From the NCBI GenBank assembly GCA_045658225.1, contig JAZOUO010000009.1, forward strand, positions 9,456-73,455: a stretch of 64,000 bases of DNA. Direction: 5' to 3'. The notes beneath the pieces were generated by a model. The model saw nothing but the letters and a program-made list of their open reading frames with translations, searched no databases and was not told the origin of the DNA. This document shows, piece after piece, positions 3,007 through 63,819 of this stretch (position 1 is the first letter of the stretch; each line of letters starts with the position of its first letter). The DNA comes from Eubacteriales bacterium (GTDB lineage Bacteria > Bacillota > Clostridia > Oscillospirales > CAG-272). A program made the position numbers and the translations under genes.

Positions 3007-5523
3007 TTAGTCCTTTTTCTTAAAGCAAACTACGCCTGCAAGGCTAACTGTTGCGATAACAGCAAATGCCGAAAGTCCGATAACGGAACCGCATCCCTTC
3101 TTTTCTTCCTTGCCACCGTTGTCGTCGCCACCCTCGCTGGGAGTGTTGGTTGTGGGAGCCTGAGTTGTGATAGTTCTCTTCTCACCGCAAACATTACAAT
3201 CTGCGTCTGTATCGCTGTCGTATGTATGAGTTGTCACAGGTGTTTCTGTCTGCTCAACAGTTACAGTACCACATACTGTACACTTTTCACCAGCTGTAAG
3301 ACCTGTATCCTTACATGTAGCCTCTACTGCGGGGATCTCCTCGGGAGTATGACCCTTGGCAGAGATCAAATTCTGAGCAACAAGTGTAGTATCACATACT
3401 GTACACTTCTTACCCTCGGTTCTACCTGCATCGGTACAAGTTGCCTCTACTGCGGGCAATACTTCTTCCTTGTGTCCGGGAGCTTCAACAACTTTGGTGA
3501 TCTTAACAAACTGGCACTTCTTACAAACTTCAATCTCCGAGCCGTTAGTTGTACATGTTGCCGCTTTATCTACCTTCCATTCGGTGTTTTCGTGAGCGCA
3601 ACCGAATCCGCATCCCTTAACGGTACATTCACCGTTTTCGTTAAGTTCGTGGGGTACCGCAGCCTCGCTGTAATCACATCCCTTTGTACTACAAACTATC
3701 CAGTGCTCTGTTTCGTTGTTTGCATATACCTTAGTGTGGCCGGTAGCTTTAATAACATCAGATGAGTTTGTACCGCAAATAATGCATGCCTCGCCTGCTT
3801 CTCTACCATTCTCTGTACATGTGGGAGCTATGTATTCTGAAGGCTCCATCTTGTGACCGGGAGCCTGAACTCTCTGGGGAGCCTTACCATTGATGTACTG
3901 ATTACAAACAGCACACTGTTCGGTTTCTCTCCAACCGGGAGTGACGCATCCTACAGGAACCGCGGGAGTTATTATTTTATCACCCTCGTGTCCACAGGGC
4001 TCATAATTGTTGACATAGTTCTCTGCATACTCATTTGCAGCGTCTTGAGTGCGGAAGTATGCCATATAGCAAAGATCAAAGTGATTGGTTTCGGGGTCGC
4101 TAAGCATATATTCGGTATACTTAGCATCTATTCTGAAGAAGTTGATTCTGCCACTCCAATCTTCAAACAGAGAGAAGTCTATAACGAAGAGCTGATATGT
4201 GTTTCCATCAAAATCTTCAAACTCTTCAGACGGATACACATCCGGTATTCTACAGTTCATGCTAGGGCTAAGCTGTTGATTTGCGCCGTAGTATATGCAA
4301 TCAAACATATGGGCGTCCGCACCCTGACATTCGTAGTCATTATCTTCGGTACGTTCACAGTTACAGAAGTTTCTGAGAAGAACAGCTACATAAGGATATT
4401 CGGTAGCGTTATACGAGATAGCGTTATCGGGTGCTATTGTGAAATATGCAGCAATACCCTCCTTCTCAGGGTAAATCACGAAGGAACCGTCATAATTATT
4501 AGGTACACAGGTTCCGTTGGATACCTGAAGGTCACCGGTCTTTTTAAACTCGCCCTTTTCGTTCTTTGCATCAAAATAAAGAACGGGGTCCTTGGGATCA
4601 AACTCAGATGTATCGATAATGTCACCAATGGGTTCTACGTTGTTGACCTGCTCTGCCTTGTCACTACCTGTGGGCTTTTCACCGTTGAATTCCGTGATAG
4701 TCACAGTTGTTGTGACGTCGGATGTTTCGTTGAACAAACCAAAGCCTATGTATGCAAAGCCTTCAGTAAATCTTTGGTGGAGATATTCATTAAGAACGTC
4801 AGCGGGAGTTACCAGGACGTCCTGAATATAAAGGCTGTAGTAGTCAGCGGCTTTATCGTACTCAAGCCTCATGGTAAGAGTATATGTGCCATCCGCATCG
4901 GGATCCATAGACCCCGGATTAGGCGCAACGCCCCCAGCACCAGTGTTGTCAGCCATAAGGCTCCATGTACAGGGATTACCCTCTGATCCGTGTTGAAGCA
5001 TTTCATTTGTCCAGTCATAGAACACCTGGTCGGAAATAAAGTTCTGGATAACGGCAACTCTGTTAAGACATGCAAAGCCCTGTCCGTAATTACCCGAGTT
5101 ATCGCCCTGCGCAGGGTTGATCTGGTCCCAAATATAGAAGCTGAACCATCTATCAGTACCTGGTACGGCTTCGAATCCAGTCACCTTGACTGTCATGGAG
5201 ATACCCTCTTTGAGGTTCTGCATTTCTTTGGTTGTAGTCTGGATACGAGGAGTGCTCAACGTTTTAGTTGAAAACTCGCCGCTTATTTTGAAGCCGTCAT
5301 CGGTATATTCGTAGCCGGCAACGTTAGTTGTAGATTTGGTAGGATCACTAAAATCATAGATATAGTTACCATCATCATCCTGGTATGTTTTGGGGTCCTG
5401 GAAAACTGCCCAGTCACCACCGTCCTTGGTCTCCTCAGCTGCCGCCGCGGGAACGATGGCAAGAGTAGCAAGGATAGAGAGAATCATTACAGTTGCAAGA
5501 ACTGTAGCAATAATCTTTTTCAT
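3007..5523 (-). CDS. large cell-surface protein with an unknown N-terminal domain, tandem Cys-rich GH..C..CxxC repeats and a C-terminal TM anchor
   Basis: 838 aa. Signal peptide MKKIIATVLATVMILSILATLAIVPAAAA. About 5-6 repeats of GH-x(7-12)-[AP]TC-x2-G-x5-6-C-x2-C. P/T/G/D linker, then a hydrophobic helix + KKKD at the C-terminus. AAGGAGA RBS. Confidence 0.7.
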   Translation of the reverse strand: MKKIIATVLATVMILSILATLAIVPAAAAEETKDGGDWAVFQDPKTYQDDDGNYIYDFSDPTKSTTNVAGYEYTDDGFKISGEFSTKTLSTPRIQTTTKEMQNLKEGISMTVKVTGFEAVPGTDRWFSFYIWDQINPAQGDNSGNYGQGFACLNRVAVIQNFISDQVFYDWTNEMLQHGSEGNPCTWSLMADNTGAGGVAPNPGSMDPDADGTYTLTMRLEYDKAADYYSLYIQDVLVTPADVLNEYLHQRFTEGFAYIGFGLFNETSDVTTTVTITEFNGEKPTGSDKAEQVNNVEPIGDIIDTSEFDPKDPVLYFDAKNEKGEFKKTGDLQVSNGTCVPNNYDGSFVIYPEKEGIAAYFTIAPDNAISYNATEYPYVAVLLRNFCNCERTEDNDYECQGADAHMFDCIYYGANQQLSPSMNCRIPDVYPSEEFEDFDGNTYQLFVIDFSLFEDWSGRINFFRIDAKYTEYMLSDPETNHFDLCYMAYFRTQDAANEYAENYVNNYEPCGHEGDKIITPAVPVGCVTPGWRETEQCAVCNQYINGKAPQRVQAPGHKMEPSEYIAPTCTENGREAGEACIICGTNSSDVIKATGHTKVYANNETEHWIVCSTKGCDYSEAAVPHELNENGECTVKGCGFGCAHENTEWKVDKAATCTTNGSEIEVCKKCQFVKITKVVEAPGHKEEVLPAVEATCTDAGRTEGKKCTVCDTTLVAQNLISAKGHTPEEIPAVEATCKDTGLTAGEKCTVCGTVTVEQTETPVTTHTYDSDTDADCNVCGEKRTITTQAPTTNTPSEGGDDNGGKEEKKGCGSVIGLSAFAVIATVSLAGVVCFKKKD

Positions 5524-58353: not shown

Positions 58354-58408
58354 ATTTCCACCCTCCCAAAAATAAAATTAAGGTGACAAAGCCGTGGGGG
58401 TAAGTTGT

Positions 58409-59503
58409 ATGAAAAAAGCAGATCTCAAAAAAACAGGTAGACAGGTATCTCCATTGCCTATATTTGTGCTCTTCTTGCTCGTGCTGCTGCTTATATCCCC
58501 CACAGTTTCCTTTGAGTATATGAGGGGCTCGCTCAAACTATGCGTGCAAAGTCTTGTCCCATCGCTTTTTCCTTTTATGATAATTTCGGATTTTCTCATC
58601 TCTAGCGATACGGGAAAAATACTCAAAGTGCTTTTTGCTCGTCCGTTGAGCTTTATATTCGGTACGTCTCGCGAGGGATCGTTTGCAGTGTTGCTTGGCT
58701 TTTTGTGCGGATTTCCCATAGGTGCTAAAAGCGCATTGAAGCTTTACGAGGAGAATAAAATAAGCCACACCGAGCTTTGCCACATAATGAGTTTTGGCAA
58801 CATCCCATCCCCTGCATTTATGTGTGGCGCGGTCGGACTGCTTTTTCAAAGCTCTCGAATTGGAGTAATTCTGTTTGTGTCGCTTATTTTGTCCTCGCTG
58901 ATTTTAGGAACAGTGGGAAGATTTATATACAAATACAACCGCAAGGCTGTCCCCGTATCGCAAAAAAGAACAGATGCGGTAAATGCCTTTACAAGCGCGG
59001 TATCCTCGTCTGCGGTGGTTATGCTGACTGTGTGCGGATACGTGGTGTTTTTCTCTGTGCTTATCGGGTACGCCACACGTCTGTGCGACATAGTTGGCGC
59101 GCCGAAAATACTGCCTGTAATTCTGTCTGGATTGCTTGAAATATCAAACGGAATATCACACTCGGCAGGACTTGGCGGTGATATTTCACCCATACTTGCA
59201 GCGTTTTTTGCGGGATTTTCGGGGCTTTCGGTTATTTTTCAGATAATCTCGCTTGACTCTGGCAGACACATAAGAAAAAAAACCTTTGTTGTCCAAAAGC
59301 TTTTGCAAGGAGTCCTCTGCTCAATTATATGCTTTGTTTTGCTAAAAATCTTTCCTGTGTCAGTCACTCCATCCGCCCCGACGTTGAGTGACATATCCGT
59401 TGAAAGCTACGGGCTTTATATCTGCTTTTTATTCTTCATAAGCGCAACGCTGCCGCTTCTTGCCATGTTTTTTCAAAGAAAAAAAGACTCTCACGAAAAG
59501 TGA
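58409..59503 (+). CDS. ylbJ: sporulation integral membrane protein YlbJ-like (nucleoside-recognition domain)
   Basis: I prefer the ATG at 58409. SLVPSLFPFMIISDFLI and a multi-TM profile. Confidence 0.7.
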   Translation: MKKADLKKTGRQVSPLPIFVLFLLVLLLISPTVSFEYMRGSLKLCVQSLVPSLFPFMIISDFLISSDTGKILKVLFARPLSFIFGTSREGSFAVLLGFLCGFPIGAKSALKLYEENKISHTELCHIMSFGNIPSPAFMCGAVGLLFQSSRIGVILFVSLILSSLILGTVGRFIYKYNRKAVPVSQKRTDAVNAFTSAVSSSAVVMLTVCGYVVFFSVLIGYATRLCDIVGAPKILPVILSGLLEISNGISHSAGLGGDISPILAAFFAGFSGLSVIFQIISLDSGRHIRKKTFVVQKLLQGVLCSIICFVLLKIFPVSVTPSAPTLSDISVESYGLYICFLFFISATLPLLAMFFQRKKDSHEK

Positions 59504-59519
59504 TAGCCTATGAAAAATT

Positions 59520-59559
59520 ATAAAAACACAAAAGCACCTACGCTTTTGCATAGGTGCTT
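59520..59559 (-). terminator. terminator of the distal tRNA-like unit
   Basis: On the minus strand: AAGCACCTA-tgcaaaagcg-TAGGTGCTT + TTTGTGTTTTT. Confidence 0.75.
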
Positions 59560-59664
59560 TGGAGCTGGTAATCAGAATTCAACTGATGACCGACGTTTGC
59601 GTAGCAAACTCGCGGCAGTGAGCGAAGCGAACGTATGTCGTCCTTACCAATGACGTGCTCTACC
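59560..59664 (-). ncRNA. tRNA-Thr-derived tRNA-like unit 1 (46-nt variable-loop insert, degenerate 5' half)
   Basis: The D-stem 3' strand and anticodon stem-loop are identical to the real tRNA at 21/21 nt. Variable-3'/T-arm/acceptor-3'/CCA match at 30/32. The insert lies at 59592-59637. The T-loop reads TTGAATT. Confidence 0.55.
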
Positions 59665-59675
59665 CCTCAAATCAT

Positions 59676-59715
59676 ACATAAACACAAAAGCACCCACGCT
59701 TTTGCATAGGTGCTT
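59676..59715 (-). terminator. terminator of tRNA-like unit 2
   Basis: Same hairpin as the other two terminators. The single arm difference gives a U-G pair on the minus strand and a C-A mismatch on the plus strand. Confidence 0.75.
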
Positions 59716-59829
59716 TGGAGCTGGTAATCAGAATTCAACTGATGACCCGACGTTTGCGTAGCAAACTCGCGGCAGTGAGCGAGCAATGTGAGCGAACGTA
59801 TGTCGTCCTTACCAATGACGTGCTCTACC
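59716..59829 (-). ncRNA. tRNA-Thr-derived tRNA-like unit 2 (55-nt variable-loop insert, degenerate 5' half)
   Basis: Same architecture as unit 1. The insert lies at 59748-59802 and differs from unit 1 by an 8-nt internal indel plus 1 nt. Confidence 0.55.
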
Positions 59830-59840
59830 CCTCAAGTCAT

Positions 59841-59880
59841 ACACAAACACAAAAGCACCTACGCTATTGCATAGGTGCTT
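59841..59880 (-). terminator. terminator of tRNA-Thr
   Basis: On the minus strand: AAGCACCTA-tgcaatagcg-TAGGTGCTT + TTTGTGTTTGTGT. Confidence 0.75.
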
Positions 59881-59956
59881 TGGAGCTGGTAATCAGAATC
59901 GAACTGATGACCTCGTCATTACCAATGACGTGCTCTACCGACTGAGCCATACCAGC
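59881..59956 (-). tRNA. tRNA-Thr (anticodon GGT), CCA encoded
   Basis: Hand-folded as GCTGGTA-TG-GCTC-AGTCGGTA-GAGC-A-CGTCA-TTGGTAA-TGACG-AGGTC-ATCAG-TTCGATT-CTGAT-TACCAGC-T-CCA. All four stems are perfect. Confidence 0.9.
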
Positions 59957-60013
59957 GAAGTATGAGCTTGTGTGGCGCAAGGAGGTAGCGCAAAACCACC
60001 AAAGGTGGTGAAA

Positions 60014-60035
60014 CTACCGACTGAGCCATACCAGC
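60014..60035 (-). repeat. exact 22-nt duplicate of the tRNA-Thr 5' end (acceptor 5' strand + D-stem/loop)
   Basis: ctaccgactgagccataccagc is identical to 59935-59956 and sits 79 nt upstream on the minus strand. Confidence 0.9.
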
Positions 60036-60059
60036 ATGCCACTTTGTGACGACCTGTGT

Positions 60060-60088
60060 ATTATATCAAATAAAATTGCGTTTGTCAA
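60060..60088 (-). promoter_or_regulatory. perfect consensus sigma-A promoter driving the tRNA-Thr array
   Basis: On the minus strand: TTGACA (60083-60088), 17-nt spacer, TATAAT (60060-60065). Confidence 0.75.
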
Positions 60089-60192: not shown

Positions 60193-60795
60193 ATGGATCC
60201 TAAGGCTTTATTCAAAATAGGCTACGGTCTTTACGTTGTGACGGTCAACGACGGCGTCAAGGACACAGGCTGTATCCTCAACTCCATAATGCAGGTCACA
60301 GGCTCGCCAGCGAGAGTTGCGGTGACAATAAACAAGTCAAATTACACCTACGAGGTCGTAAAAAACACGGGCAAGATGAACATAAACTGCCTTACTGTTG
60401 ACGCGCCGTTCTCTGTCTTTGAAAAATTCGGCTTCAAGAGCGGCAGGAACACGGTCAAGCTCGGCGGCGAGTTTCTTCCCCGCTCAAAGAACGGTCTCGG
60501 ATATCTGACAAAATATATAAATTCGTATATTTCTCTCGAAACCGAGAAGTTTATCGACCTTGACACACACGTTATGTTTATCTGCAAGGTTGTTGACGCG
60601 CAGGTAATTTCCAACGCCGAGACTATGACGTACAGCTACTATCACGCAAACGTCAAGCCCAAGCCACAGAAACCCAAGACAAAGGGATACGTGTGCAAAA
60701 TATGCGGATATATTTACGAGGGTGACCCTCTTCCTGAGGACTTTATCTGCCCTCTCTGTAAGCACCCCGCGTCTGATTTCGAACCGCTTGATTAA
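60193..60795 (+). CDS. flavin reductase-like domain fused to rubredoxin (high-molecular-weight rubredoxin type)
   Basis: 200 aa. The N-terminal half is a flavin reductase fold (GLYVVTV...GCILNS). The C-terminus [27 protein letters not shown] is rubredoxin. AAGGAGG RBS. Confidence 0.8.
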
Positions 60796-60882: not shown

Positions 60883-61132
60883 TAAAAATTAAAACACTTT
60901 GATCGGAAGTAGTAAATTGTGAGTCCTTTGCAGAGAGTGGGCGGTCGGTGCGAGCCTACAAGGATAGCTTTTGAAGTCGTCCGTTAGTGGTGTGGGTGAA
61001 GGCGTCCGCATATAGCCTGCAACGGTTGCTCCGTTATAGCATAAGAGAGATATTTGCCAAGAGGCAAGTATAAATTAGGTGGTACCGCGTGTATTATTAT
61101 GCGTCCTGATGTTTTACATCAGGGCATTTTTT
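60883..61132 (+). promoter_or_regulatory. T-box riboswitch leader (Val specifier) with terminator/antiterminator
   Basis: T-box sequence AAATTAGGTGGTACCGCG at 61072-61089. AGAGAG/GGTGCGA stem I elements. GTC codons at 60976-60981 in the specifier region. Terminator GTCCTGATG-tttta-CATCAGGGC + TTTTTT at 61103-61132. Confidence 0.85.
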
Positions 61133-61170
61133 GTTTTATAAACAATTTCAAAAAATACAGGAGATTAAAA

Positions 61171-63819
61171 ATGAATTCTTACAACGAGCTTCCAAAAACA
61201 TATTCTCCTCAGGATTTTGAGGACAGAATTTATGCAAATTGGTGCGAAAAGGGTTATTTTACACCCGATGCAAAGAACAATAATCCCGCATTTTCAGTAG
61301 TTATTCCTCCCCCGAACGTCACGGGCCAGCTCCATATGGGTCACGCGCTTGACGAGACACTTCAGGACATTCTCGTTCGCTACAAGAGAATGCAGGGCTA
61401 CAACACCCTCTGGGTGCCCGGCACAGACCACGCGGGAATTGCTACACAGATAAAGGTTGAGGAGAGACTCCGCGTTGACGAGGGTCTTACTCGTTATGAC
61501 CTCGGCAGAGAAAAATTCCTTGAGCGCGTATGGGGTTGGAAGGACACTTACGAGGCTCGCATTACAAGTCAGCTCAAAAAGCTTGGCGCGTCTTGTGACT
61601 GGTCACGTCAGAGATTTACTATGGACGAGGGCTGCTCAAAAGCTGTTCGCGAGGTATTTGTAAACCTTTACGACAAGGGACTTATCTACCGCGGTCACAG
61701 AATAATCAACTGGTGTCCCAGATGTCTGACTGCTCTGTCCGACGCCGAGGTTGAGTACAAGGATCAGCCTGGATTTTTCTGGCACATAAAGTACCCCATT
61801 ATCGGTGAGGACGGCTACGTTGAGGTAGCTACAACTCGTCCCGAGACTATGTTCGGTGATACCGCCGTTGCGGTTAACCCCGAGGACGAAAAGACAAAGC
61901 ACCTCATCGGAAAGAAGGTTCTTCTTCCCATAGTAAACAGAGAAATTCCCGTTATTGCCGACGACTACGTAGAGATCGGCTTTGGTACGGGTTGCGTAAA
62001 GATCACTCCCGCACACGACCCCAACGACTTTATGGTAGGTCAGAGACACAACCTTGAGCAGATAAAGGTTATGAACGACGACGCGACTATGAACTCGGGC
62101 GCGGGCAAGTACGAGGGTATGGACAGATACGAATGTCGCAAGGCTCTTGTCTCTGATCTTGAGGCAGAGGGTTATCTTGTAAAGGTCGAGCCTCACGACC
62201 ACAATGTTGGCGTTTGCTACCGTTGCGGCACGACAGTTGAGCCTCTCACGAGCGACCAGTGGTTCGTTAAGATGAAGCCCCTCGCGGCTCCCGCTATTGA
62301 GGCAGTTGAGTGTGGTGACATCAACTTCGTTCCCGAGCGTTTCTCCAAAAACTATTTTAACTGGATGAACAACATCCTTGACTGGTGTATCTCCCGTCAG
62401 CTCTGGTGGGGACACAGAATTCCCGCGTTCTATTGCGATACGTGCGGAGAGATGACGGTTTCTAAGACCGACATCTGCACCTGTCCCAAGTGCGGCGCAC
62501 CTGTTCGTCAGGACCCCGACGTGCTTGACACGTGGTTCTCCTCGGCTCTCTGGCCCTTCTCTACTCTCGGTTGGCCCGAGTCAACAGAGGATCTTAAAAA
62601 GTATTATCCCACGAGCGTGCTCGTAACGGGTTACGATATTATCACGTTCTGGGTATCGCGTATGATATTCTCAGGACTTGAGCATATGGGACAAAAGCCC
62701 TTCTCCACCGTATTCATTCACGGTCTTGTAAGAGACGCGCAGGGCAGAAAGATGTCAAAGTCTCTCGGCAACGGAATAGACCCGCTTGAAGTTATAAAGA
62801 CCTACGGCGCAGACGCGCTCCGCTTTGCGCTCGCGACAGGCAACTCCCCCGGAAATGATATGAGATTCTCGGACGAAAAGATCGAGGCAGCAAGAAACTT
62901 TGCAAACAAGCTCTGGAACGCGTCGAGATTCGTAAGAATGAATCTTACCATTGACGAGATAAAGCTTCCCGAAGCGGACAAGCTCGCACTCGAGGATAAG
63001 TGGATACTCAACGAGTACAATAAGCTCGTAGAAAACGTTGTTGGCGCGCTTGACAAATTTGAAGTCGGCGTTGCTCTCTCTGCTATCTACGACTTTGCTT
63101 GGGATATCTTCTGCGACTGGTACATTGAGCTTGCAAAGGCAAGACTTAACGACAAGGAGACAAAGGCAAATCTTATCTGCCAGAACGTTATCTCTTACGT
63201 TCTCACAGGTATTCTCAAGCTGCTCCATCCCTTTATGCCCTTTATCACAGAGGAGATATATCAGAGCCTTCCCCACGATTGCGAAAGCATCATGATCTCC
63301 GAATATCCCGTATATTCCGAGGCTCTCTGCTTCGCTCAGCAGGCTGACGAGATGGGCAAGATAATTGACGCTATCAAGGCTATAAGAACCCGCCGCAGTG
63401 AGATGAACGTTGTTCCCTCCCGCAAGGCAAAGGTTTATATTGAAACTAAATATCAGGACATTTTCGACGGTCAGTCCGCTGTATTCTTCAGCCGTCTTGC
63501 ATCGGCCTCCGAGGTTATAGTTTCGGATAAGTTTGACGGAAATGAAGTCTCTGCCGACAACGCGGTACAGATAATCACCGATGCTTGCACCATATATCTT
63601 CCCCTCTCCGATATTATCGACTTTGAAAAGGAAAAGGCGAGACTTCAGAGCGAGCAGAAAAAGCTTATCGGCGAGATAGAGAGAATCGAAAAGAAGCTTG
63701 CAAACGAGGGCTTTGTGTCCAAGGCTCCCGCGGCAGTAATTGAGGGCGAGCGCGCAAAGCTTGCAAAGTATCGCGAAAATCTTGACGGTGTACTTTCGGC
63801 ACTCGCAAAGCTTGGATAA
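61171..63819 (+). CDS. valS: valine--tRNA ligase
   Basis: Start moved to the ATG at 61171 ([17 protein letters not shown]), with an AGGAGA RBS. HIGH-type motif [20 protein letters not shown] motif, and a C-terminal coiled coil. Confidence 0.97.

Follow-up and report, generated by a model that had tools for sequence, protein, structure and literature searches.

Probable tRNA-Thr pseudogenes interrupted by a cross-phylum hairpin repeat in uncultured gut Eubacteriales

In class II tRNAs (Leu, Ser and bacterial Tyr), the variable arm is a single stem-loop of about 10-24 nucleotides (nt). Direct repetition of tRNA 3' parts downstream of a tRNA gene is a different pattern, the classic signature of integrase-mediated insertion, with the anticodon loop as a classic crossover site. 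The locus analyzed here recalls both: in a 64,000-nt stretch of contig JAZOUO010000009.1 from a Eubacteriales bacterium (assembly GCA_045658225.1, positions 9,456 to 73,455), hereafter the window, the gene for tRNA-Thr(GGU) is followed by two tRNA-like pseudo-units, each carrying in its variable region an insert with a hairpin of its own. What might be mistaken for a tRNA with a giant variable arm seems to be a dead gene copy with a small repeat lodged in it, and, if so, should be neither annotated nor pursued as a tRNA mimic. We consider it fairly probable that the units are non-functional, 5'-truncated tandem duplicates of tRNA-Thr(GGU) and its terminator, each interrupted by one small hairpin repeat. 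The components are of known kinds, namely, a tRNA pseudogene and an interspersed hairpin repeat. Among described hairpin motifs, those to be compared with the insert are TD-1 and TD-2 of Treponema denticola (Rfam RF03155; Weinberg et al. 2007, PMC1950547), of which TD-1 is multi-copy and of unknown function.

Truncated tRNA-Thr copies in the window and in related species

A single tRNA-Thr(GGT) is called by ARAGORN, at 59881-59956 on the minus strand, with an Rfam tRNA score of 71.5 bits, and downstream of it, on the same strand, lie two direct repeats at spacings of 165 and 156 nt. The tandem array that the original prediction had described, a canonical tRNA-Thr(GGT) with two further units at these periods, is borne out by ARAGORN, Rfam and repeat analysis. 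Its parts are as follows.

59881..59956, minus strand: functional tRNA-Thr(GGU) (ARAGORN and Rfam)
59852..59881, minus strand: tRNA terminator, a 13-bp stem and then a T run (terminator-like hairpin)
59687..59851, minus strand: pseudo-unit 1, a 165-nt repeat made of a spacer, a 5'-truncated tRNA-Thr copy with an insert, and a terminator copy (repeat analysis and alignment)
59748..59802, minus strand: long-form hairpin element in unit 1, 55 nt, after tRNA position 44 (alignment)
59687..59716, minus strand: terminator copy of unit 1 (13-bp terminator-like hairpin)
59531..59686, minus strand: pseudo-unit 2, a 156-nt repeat with the architecture of unit 1 (repeat analysis and alignment)
59591..59637, minus strand: short-form hairpin element in unit 2, 47 nt, or 46 nt, depending on whether one G is assigned to the insert (alignment)
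59531..59560, minus strand: terminator copy of unit 2 and final terminator ahead of the convergent ylbJ-like gene, whose end is at 59503 (13-bp terminator-like hairpin)

Both units contain a degenerate remnant of the tRNA 5' part (GTATGACTTGAGGGGTAG), continue with a 21/21 match (GGTAGAGCACGTCATTGGTAA) to the 3' strand of the D stem and the anticodon stem-loop, differ from tRNA-Thr by T39G, and, beyond the insert, resume with a 32-nt segment (GGTCATCAGTT..CTCCA) that departs from the tRNA only in the T loop, where TTCGATT is replaced by TTGAATT; the acceptor 3' strand and CCA are kept, and a terminator copy follows. On these points, the alignments agree with what had been described before: the 21/21 and 30/32 identities of the two segments, the T-loop and position-39 changes, a terminator in each unit (three 13-bp terminator-like hairpins are seen, that of the live gene included), and an insert placed exactly between positions 44 and 45, whose hairpin is real and conserved. 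Between the two units, described as differing essentially by one 8-nt indel, there are also three substitutions and a 1-nt indel (98% identity apart from indels). Exactly the same two-unit structure is found in L009, a contig of the same species from another sample (L numbers designate the contigs and genomes compared).

Neither ARAGORN nor Rfam, the latter even at E<=10, recognizes the units as tRNAs, and the same holds for the units of the relatives; the live gene is the only tRNA called at the locus. When the element is removed, the cloverleaf of the eight units with complete sequence has 1-4 of the 7 acceptor pairs, 0-4 of the 4 D-stem pairs and at most 4 of the 5 anticodon pairs, along with 3-5 of the 5 T-stem pairs (L012 entered the counts for the T stem only), and the acceptor, D and T stems are disrupted differently from species to species. 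The units neither form nor are selected to form a tRNA cloverleaf. Ahead of them, there is no promoter-like site but, instead, the strong 13-bp terminator of the tRNA.

Syntenic loci in related genomes were reached via homologues of the neighboring YabP, YlbJ-like and flavin-reductase proteins, and a neighbor-joining tree built from YlbJ, YabP and YqfD places the outgroup L001 first, then L048, followed by ((window, L041), (L030, L043)) and (L012, L047); L050 is a further in-group species, with 78% YlbJ identity. A pseudo-unit occupies the same place, beside ylbJ, in six related species, or seven counting that of the window. The duplication junction, in which the terminator tail (TTTTGTGTTT.T) is joined to tRNA nucleotide ~5 at a TAT/GTATG microhomology, is common to the window, L041, L030, L047, L048/49 and L050, as are T39G and the 44/45 insertion (the L012 contig ends inside the array, so that only its 44/45 array and 3' part are visible). 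This shared configuration points to one ancestral tandem duplication of the tRNA plus terminator.

Other features of the unit vary. At 44/45, there is one element copy in the window, L041 and L048, two copies in tandem in L050, and at least four tandem 56-nt copies in L012; L047 (which has one at 44/45) and L030 (which has two) have a further copy within the anticodon loop, between positions 33 and 34. L030 and L050 have a wild-type 5' remnant, the window and L041 a patched one, and in L047 and L048 it is deleted or occupied by an insertion resembling a miniature inverted-repeat transposable element (MITE). The T arm of the unit reads CATCAG-TTGAATT in the window, L047, L048 and L050, and CACAGG-TTCGATT, which breaks the stem, in L041, L030 and L012, and in L010, a contig of the window species, the unit has the wild-type T loop and a tRNA-type terminator loop. 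Within that species, there are two units in the window and L009 and one in L008, L010 and L011, as counted in metagenome assemblies, which can collapse repeats, the one-unit form being present in two independent assemblies; similarly, L048 has one unit vs two in L049. No unit is present in L043/44, of which L043 is the sister of L030 at 3.3% amino-acid distance, or in the outgroup contigs L001 and L004, close relatives that represent one lineage, and whereas the former have lost it, the latter would never have had it. The distance from the tRNA terminator to the unit in the seven unit-bearing species is 9-16 nt or else is taken up by a mini-insertion of 60-85 nt.

We infer the order of events and the recombination mechanisms to have been as follows. 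An illegitimate tandem duplication, from tRNA nucleotide ~5 through the terminator, would have occurred in the common ancestor of uncultured gut Eubacteriales that form a clade of genus rank, yielding a duplicate that was dead on arrival, without a promoter, without the first 4 acceptor nucleotides and behind a strong terminator. The mini-repeat would then have inserted after position 44 (and, in certain lineages, at a second point between positions 33 and 34), and afterwards would have grown and shrunk in copy number, much as a minisatellite does. Unequal crossover and gene conversion with the adjacent live gene could have kept stretches of the copy identical to the tRNA, and would be reflected in a unit terminator loop that tracks that of its own tRNA, in the presence of zero, one or two units, and in the shuffling of variants between lineages; the two near-identical units of the window would stem from a recent whole-unit duplication.

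Several observations suggest that unequal crossover and gene conversion between the live gene and the dead copy are ongoing, in all likelihood with some exchange between species. An unequal crossover within the 31 nt that the tRNA shares with unit 1 would yield exactly the haplotype of L008 and L011. From species to species, the terminator loop of the unit varies, and yet it equals that of the tRNA at the same locus, exactly in L041, L047, L048 and L050 and nearly so in L030; in the window species, only the L010 haplotype has such a match. The distributions of the T-arm types and of the anticodon-loop element are incongruent with the species tree, and the anticodon-loop copies in L030 and L047 carry the same private spacer, CACTAAT. 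Moreover, the nearest relative of ylbJ is that of L041, with a four-fold divergence of 0.26, whereas the flavin reductase of L041 stands at 0.42 vs 0.27-0.32 for L043, L030 and L047, which suggests an inter-species recombination breakpoint at the tRNA locus.

Recombination with the live gene explains, without invoking function, why perfect stretches stand beside shared and apparently non-random changes. It was from this juxtaposition that the original prediction had argued for function, correctly in so far as the units are not the outcome of simple decay by point mutation. The individual signs do not hold, however: TTGAATT alternates with TTCGATT even within the window species (L010), the supposedly preserved anticodon loop is split by an element copy in L030 and L047, and the structured insert seemingly fixed twice would reflect a recent duplication of the whole unit, L008 and L011 having one. 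Three of the roles that had been offered, namely, a tRNA-scaffolded noncoding RNA, an uncharged tRNA-Thr mimic and a decoy for anticodon-directed nucleases, depend on the anticodon loop, the T-loop change and the class II-like placement of the insert, and lose their footing because none of these is stable across relatives, the stems being broken lineage by lineage; the fourth, a recombination relic, is the one that the evidence favors. The unrelated mini-insertions that have accumulated in the spacer (L047, L048 and L050) are what would be expected of insertion-tolerant DNA. The locus can be viewed as a compact natural case of concerted evolution and copy-number change, played out between a live tRNA gene and its dead duplicate.

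The insertions and rearrangements of the related loci are themselves worth recording. In L047 (~3930-4020, minus strand of the locus), a MITE-like insertion of ~80 nt with 9-bp terminal inverted repeats (GTAGGGCGG / CCGCCCTAC) adjoins GGTAG at the start of what remains of the pseudo-unit; in L050, a hairpin-rich 62-nt insertion with a flanking direct repeat (GTGTTTATG) lies between the tRNA terminator and the unit; and 3' of the last terminator, L047 and L048 have in common a repeat of ~130 nt, inside a 181-nt aligned stretch at 86% identity. In L004, L048, L049, L051 and L052, the entire tRNA-Thr cassette, promoter and terminators included, has the opposite orientation relative to ylbJ, and in L048/49, other genes take the place of the flavin-reductase neighbor. 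We also considered a simple site-specific crossover at a shared TCAT/ACG microhomology, for which the predicted junctions, checked manually, are unlike those observed.

The hairpin element

The hairpin of the insert is 22 nt long (CGAGTTTGC-TAC-GCAAAC-G-TCG), and the insert folds as this hairpin together with an unstructured 5' half. The mini-repeat, at 46-56 nt, has the form CGTTCGCT..CGCTCACT-N3-4-CRAGTTTGC-NNN-GCAAAC-N-TYG and can be represented as a two-part module, CGTTCGCT-(0 or 8-9 nt)-NCGCTCACT-N3-4-hairpin. The exact 22-mer was detected at 25 loci in the collection of species-representative genomes, where 0.07 would be expected by chance. Most of the hosts are metagenome-assembled genomes (MAGs) of Treponema, several of which carry it on 2-4 contigs, and the others are MAGs of Eubacteriales, Oscillospiraceae, Lachnospiraceae, Clostridia, Actinomycetes and Armatimonadota. 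The flanks of these loci are unrelated to one another, and no common neighboring open reading frame (ORF) or transposase was found beside the 22-mer in the 25 loci, the sole cluster represented in more than two of them being a TatD-like hydrolase. The whole module occurs outside the tRNA context in one Treponema MAG (L014) and in four metagenome contigs (L037-L040), where it sits after gene ends, amid other CGAG...CTCG hairpins. Judged by this distribution, the insert is a copy of what appears to be a widespread, non-autonomous short repeat, and it was just such a finding, here the 25 genome loci and the non-tRNA copies, that the original prediction had named as grounds for downgrading a functional interpretation.

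Identical in its 22-nt core in MAGs of Spirochaetota, Bacillota, Actinomycetota and Armatimonadota, the repeat is uncurated: Rfam has no family for the element, a full-text literature search for a 15-mer of the hairpin returned no paper, and one that combined tRNA pseudogenes and REP elements yielded mitochondrial papers only. There are no copies elsewhere in the window, nor in the L030 and L012 genomes when the exact 22-mer is required. Comparisons of the complete locus, of the insert, of the hairpin in exact and degenerate form, and of the mutated T arm with phage, plasmid, viral-contig and E. coli collections gave only generic tRNA matches or nothing, and neither an origin from a phage attP site nor one from a fragment of a universal gene gained support from these searches. 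Reading the Treponema copies as integron attC sites also fails: there are 1-3 hairpins per 8 kb and no cassette array, and the R'/R'' core motifs misfit by eye.

Treponema MAGs present two further arrangements of the 22-nt hairpin. In eight of them (L016, L018, L019, L025, L029, L031, L033 and L034), it is often nested in another repeat, GTCATTCCC...GGGAATC, an 'empty' form of which (GTCATTCCCGTGCTTGACACGGGAATC) lies nearby in L018 and L034; the nesting and the empty form suggest mosaic, NIME-like repeat arrays. In seven others (L014, L020, L023, L026, L027, L032 and L035), a conserved cassette of ~110 nt upstream of genes combines a GC hairpin, the 22-nt hairpin and a terminator-like, A/T-flanked hairpin, and resembles a TD-1-like 5' regulatory element while scoring below the Rfam threshold.

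Conservation of the element and competing explanations

Several features of the element and the unit weigh against their being mere relics. Compared with the window copy, the 44/45 element differs between species by 1, 1, 1, 3 and 6 of 47 nt, whereas the flanking genes of the window species are 32-44% diverged from those of the others at four-fold degenerate sites, such that the orthologous element copy changes at about one tenth of the synonymous rate; where a four-fold estimate is available, as in four of the species, the binomial probability of so low an element divergence is between 4e-7 and 6e-6. The eight variable columns of the element are located in the loop of the hairpin, in the bulge, in the linkers and in a single stem pair with changes on both sides (CGAG..TCG to CAAG..TTG, in L048 and L014), a pattern that, as read from the alignment, resembles purifying selection more than the drift of a neutral relic. 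In all six species in which the region is visible, T39G and GGTAAGGACGA are unchanged, even though the live gene could convert them, and no 'empty' pseudo-unit was found, the 44/45 site being occupied in all seven unit-bearing species. To these points should be added the collapse-prone nature of the assemblies behind the within-species unit counts.

The conservation of the element does not come from gene conversion by the tRNA, because the tRNA has no element. It is possible that it results from purifying selection on a binding site or on an RNA or DNA hairpin; possible, too, are turnover out of an active pool and exchange of the whole conserved cassette between species. The low divergence is not peculiar to the element, however: between L047 and L048, a different small repeat of the locus has diverged by only 10-14%, and the tRNA-Thr leader shows 9-14% divergence, so that slow change is a property of the whole cassette. 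All things considered, we regard a function of the element or the unit as unlikely, albeit a chance to be taken seriously.

One form of this idea is that a conserved core, comprising the anticodon-arm remnant with T39G, the hairpin element, the T-arm/CCA remnant and the terminator, is functional and is maintained by selection, not by recombination alone. Such a core might be a small RNA derived from read-through, a protein-binding DNA hairpin, a landing pad taking up insertions directed at the live tRNA, or a back-up bidirectional terminator or insulator against the convergent ylbJ. It would account for an element that is 87-98% identical where synonymous divergence is 32-44%, with substitutions confined to the loop, bulge and linker apart from the two-sided change of a stem pair, for the retention of the unit in seven species, and for a cassette that, from promoter to last terminator, is far better conserved than the flanking synonymous sites. 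Yet, the unit is dispensable, having been lost in L043/44, being absent in the L001/L004 lineage and varying in copy number; it has no detectable promoter and lies behind a 13-bp terminator; its tRNA-like pairings are not maintained, and its anticodon loop is interrupted in L030 and L047; unrelated small insertions pile up in the same spacer; and the similarly low divergence of another repeat at the locus implies that the element is not special. On balance, we deem a selected core improbable. Still less probable, to our minds, is a bolder version, in which the element is a selected functional module, possibly together with its tRNA 3' half, recognized by a protein or RNA across gut phyla, or else a new, tiny mobile element whose targets are tRNA-gene loops, analogous in bacteria to the transposing tRNA introns of Thermoproteales.

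Mobility also figures in another explanation, whereby the element is an actively mobile, site-selective repeat, moved in trans by, for example, a hairpin-specific HUH/Y1 transposase, that re-inserts at tRNA-Thr motifs of the form N|GGTMA; only insertions into the dead copy would survive, and turnover from the active pool would account for the low divergence. In keeping with this idea, the same pseudo-tRNA has two separate insertion points, which resemble each other in their 3' flanks (|GGTAA and |GGTCA) and lack a target duplication; different phyla share an identical hairpin, of which Treponema MAGs have several copies each; and no viral carrier was found. The idea is hard to reconcile, however, with the occupancy of the 44/45 site in every unit, with the private spacer CACTAAT, which marks the anticodon-loop copies of L030 and L047 as orthologous and not independent, with the lack of a second copy in the 64-kb window and of any other exact 22-mer locus in the L030 and L012 genomes, and with the lack of a transposase beside any copy, and we accord it only a slim chance.

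The notion that the units are attachment-site scars, that is, attR-like displaced tRNA 3' parts left by the integration of an island or prophage into tRNA-Thr, with the element as a remnant of the integrated DNA, appeals to the direct repeats of the tRNA 3' part downstream of the tRNA, to the element copy within the anticodon loop of L030 and L047, and to the rearranged or inverted cassettes of some relatives, but appears highly improbable, given that the seven unit-bearing species show no integrase or island and only the short gaps or mini-insertions already described, that the repeat spans nearly the whole tRNA, from ~nucleotide 5, plus the terminator, unlike an att core, that the unit and element have no match in the phage, plasmid and viral-contig collections, and that the element also occurs in tandem arrays and non-tRNA contexts.

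The live gene and known counterparts of the locus

The live tRNA-Thr sequence is unchanged across all the related species except L050, where a seemingly live tRNA-Thr differs in the D arm by two changes (GGCACAGTCGCTAG) that would make the D stem and the G19 contact weaker, and that may be an assembly error or a real variant. Its promoter is kept in all related loci. The leader that follows the promoter (59957-60059, minus strand) contains a feature missed in the original prediction, a copy of the first 22 nt of the tRNA, and upstream of the tRNA, the cassette comprises the following.

60060..60088, minus strand: sigma-70 consensus promoter of the tRNA-Thr cassette, TTGACA-17-TATAAT with TG (12/12 matches)
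60014..60035, minus strand: exact 22-nt copy of tRNA nucleotides 1-22 in the 5' leader (direct-repeat analysis)
59970..59988, minus strand: leader segment with complementarity to the 22-nt copy and, to the same extent, to the 5' part of the real tRNA (RNAalifold)

The 22-nt copy is kept in the outgroup contigs L001 and L004 and missing from L048, L049, L051 and L052. Its complement lies ~25 nt downstream, and in the RNAalifold consensus of 7 contigs from 6 lineages, including the outgroup, the two pair with each other, the pairs being all invariant, with no covariation; as modeled, the leader copy, the complement and the real tRNA 5' end could engage in alternative pairings. A small hairpin is present in the leader at 59996-60010. 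We rejected a split-tRNA arrangement, in which the leader 5' copy would complement the downstream 3' units, because each occurs without the other, L001/L004 having the copy only and L048/49 the units only.

The tRNA-Thr cassette is flanked by the convergent ylbJ-like gene (58394-59503) and by a flavin reductase-rubredoxin gene (60193-60795). Further along, a T-box leader (60890-61111, plus strand; 125 bits) lies upstream of valS (ORF 61054-63819); it is kept in relatives and has no relation to tRNA-Thr. Apart from the live tRNA, it is the only significant Rfam match. It is also the only T-box in the window, and this, the interrupted anticodon loop of L030 and L047 and the fold that is not kept speak against a role of the units as a T-box ligand or tRNA-Thr mimic.

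Like class II tRNAs, the units have extra sequence in the variable region between positions 44 and 45; unlike them, they carry an insert of 46-56 nt, reaching at least 4 x 56 nt in tandem, that is a repeat found elsewhere, in a broken cloverleaf that no tRNA model matches. As with tRNA 3' ends displaced at att sites, a tRNA 3' part is directly repeated downstream, but there is no intervening island or integrase, and nearly the whole gene plus the terminator is repeated. The first hairpin of TD-1 (CGAGUUUGcc..ggCAAAC-a-UCG) has the sequence and bulge of the insert hairpin, and both are multi-copy; nevertheless, the RF03155 model returns 24.8 and 22.4 bits vs a gathering score of 64.5, in a match that extends partly over the T arm and terminator by chance, and the Treponema 22-mer loci examined have no TD-1 match at the gathering threshold.

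A parallel is offered by the REP/BIME/REPIN and MIRU families. Like these, the element is a short, non-coding, imperfect palindrome that is intergenic, often after gene ends among other hairpins, with several copies per genome in Treponema and tandem 46-56-nt units whose number varies by species. It departs from them in its 22-nt identity across phyla, its conserved non-palindromic 5' half, and its rare or single-locus occurrence in the Clostridial genomes seen. As a short palindromic module at many unrelated, mostly intergenic sites, it falls in with REP/BIME- and MITE-like repeats; as head-to-tail units of 40-100 nt in varying number (at least 4 x 56 nt in L012, 2 in L030 and L050, 1 elsewhere), it falls in with minisatellites and MIRU-like variable-number tandem repeats. 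Going by sequence, therefore, the element appears to behave like a REP/BIME-type interspersed palindrome in general and like a MIRU-type minisatellite at the tRNA-Thr locus. For research on bacterial repeats, the main interest lies in this cross-phylum hairpin and its unexpectedly strong conservation.

The units themselves find their counterpart in tRNA pseudogenes and partial duplicates in tandem arrays, where, as here, a 5'-truncated copy without a promoter stands beside the live gene, shows patchy identity to it, consistent with concerted evolution, and is missed by tRNA finders. What sets the present copies apart from such pseudogenes is that they hold an interspersed repeat in the variable region, and in some relatives in the anticodon loop as well, and that the copy has persisted at one locus across at least 7 species.

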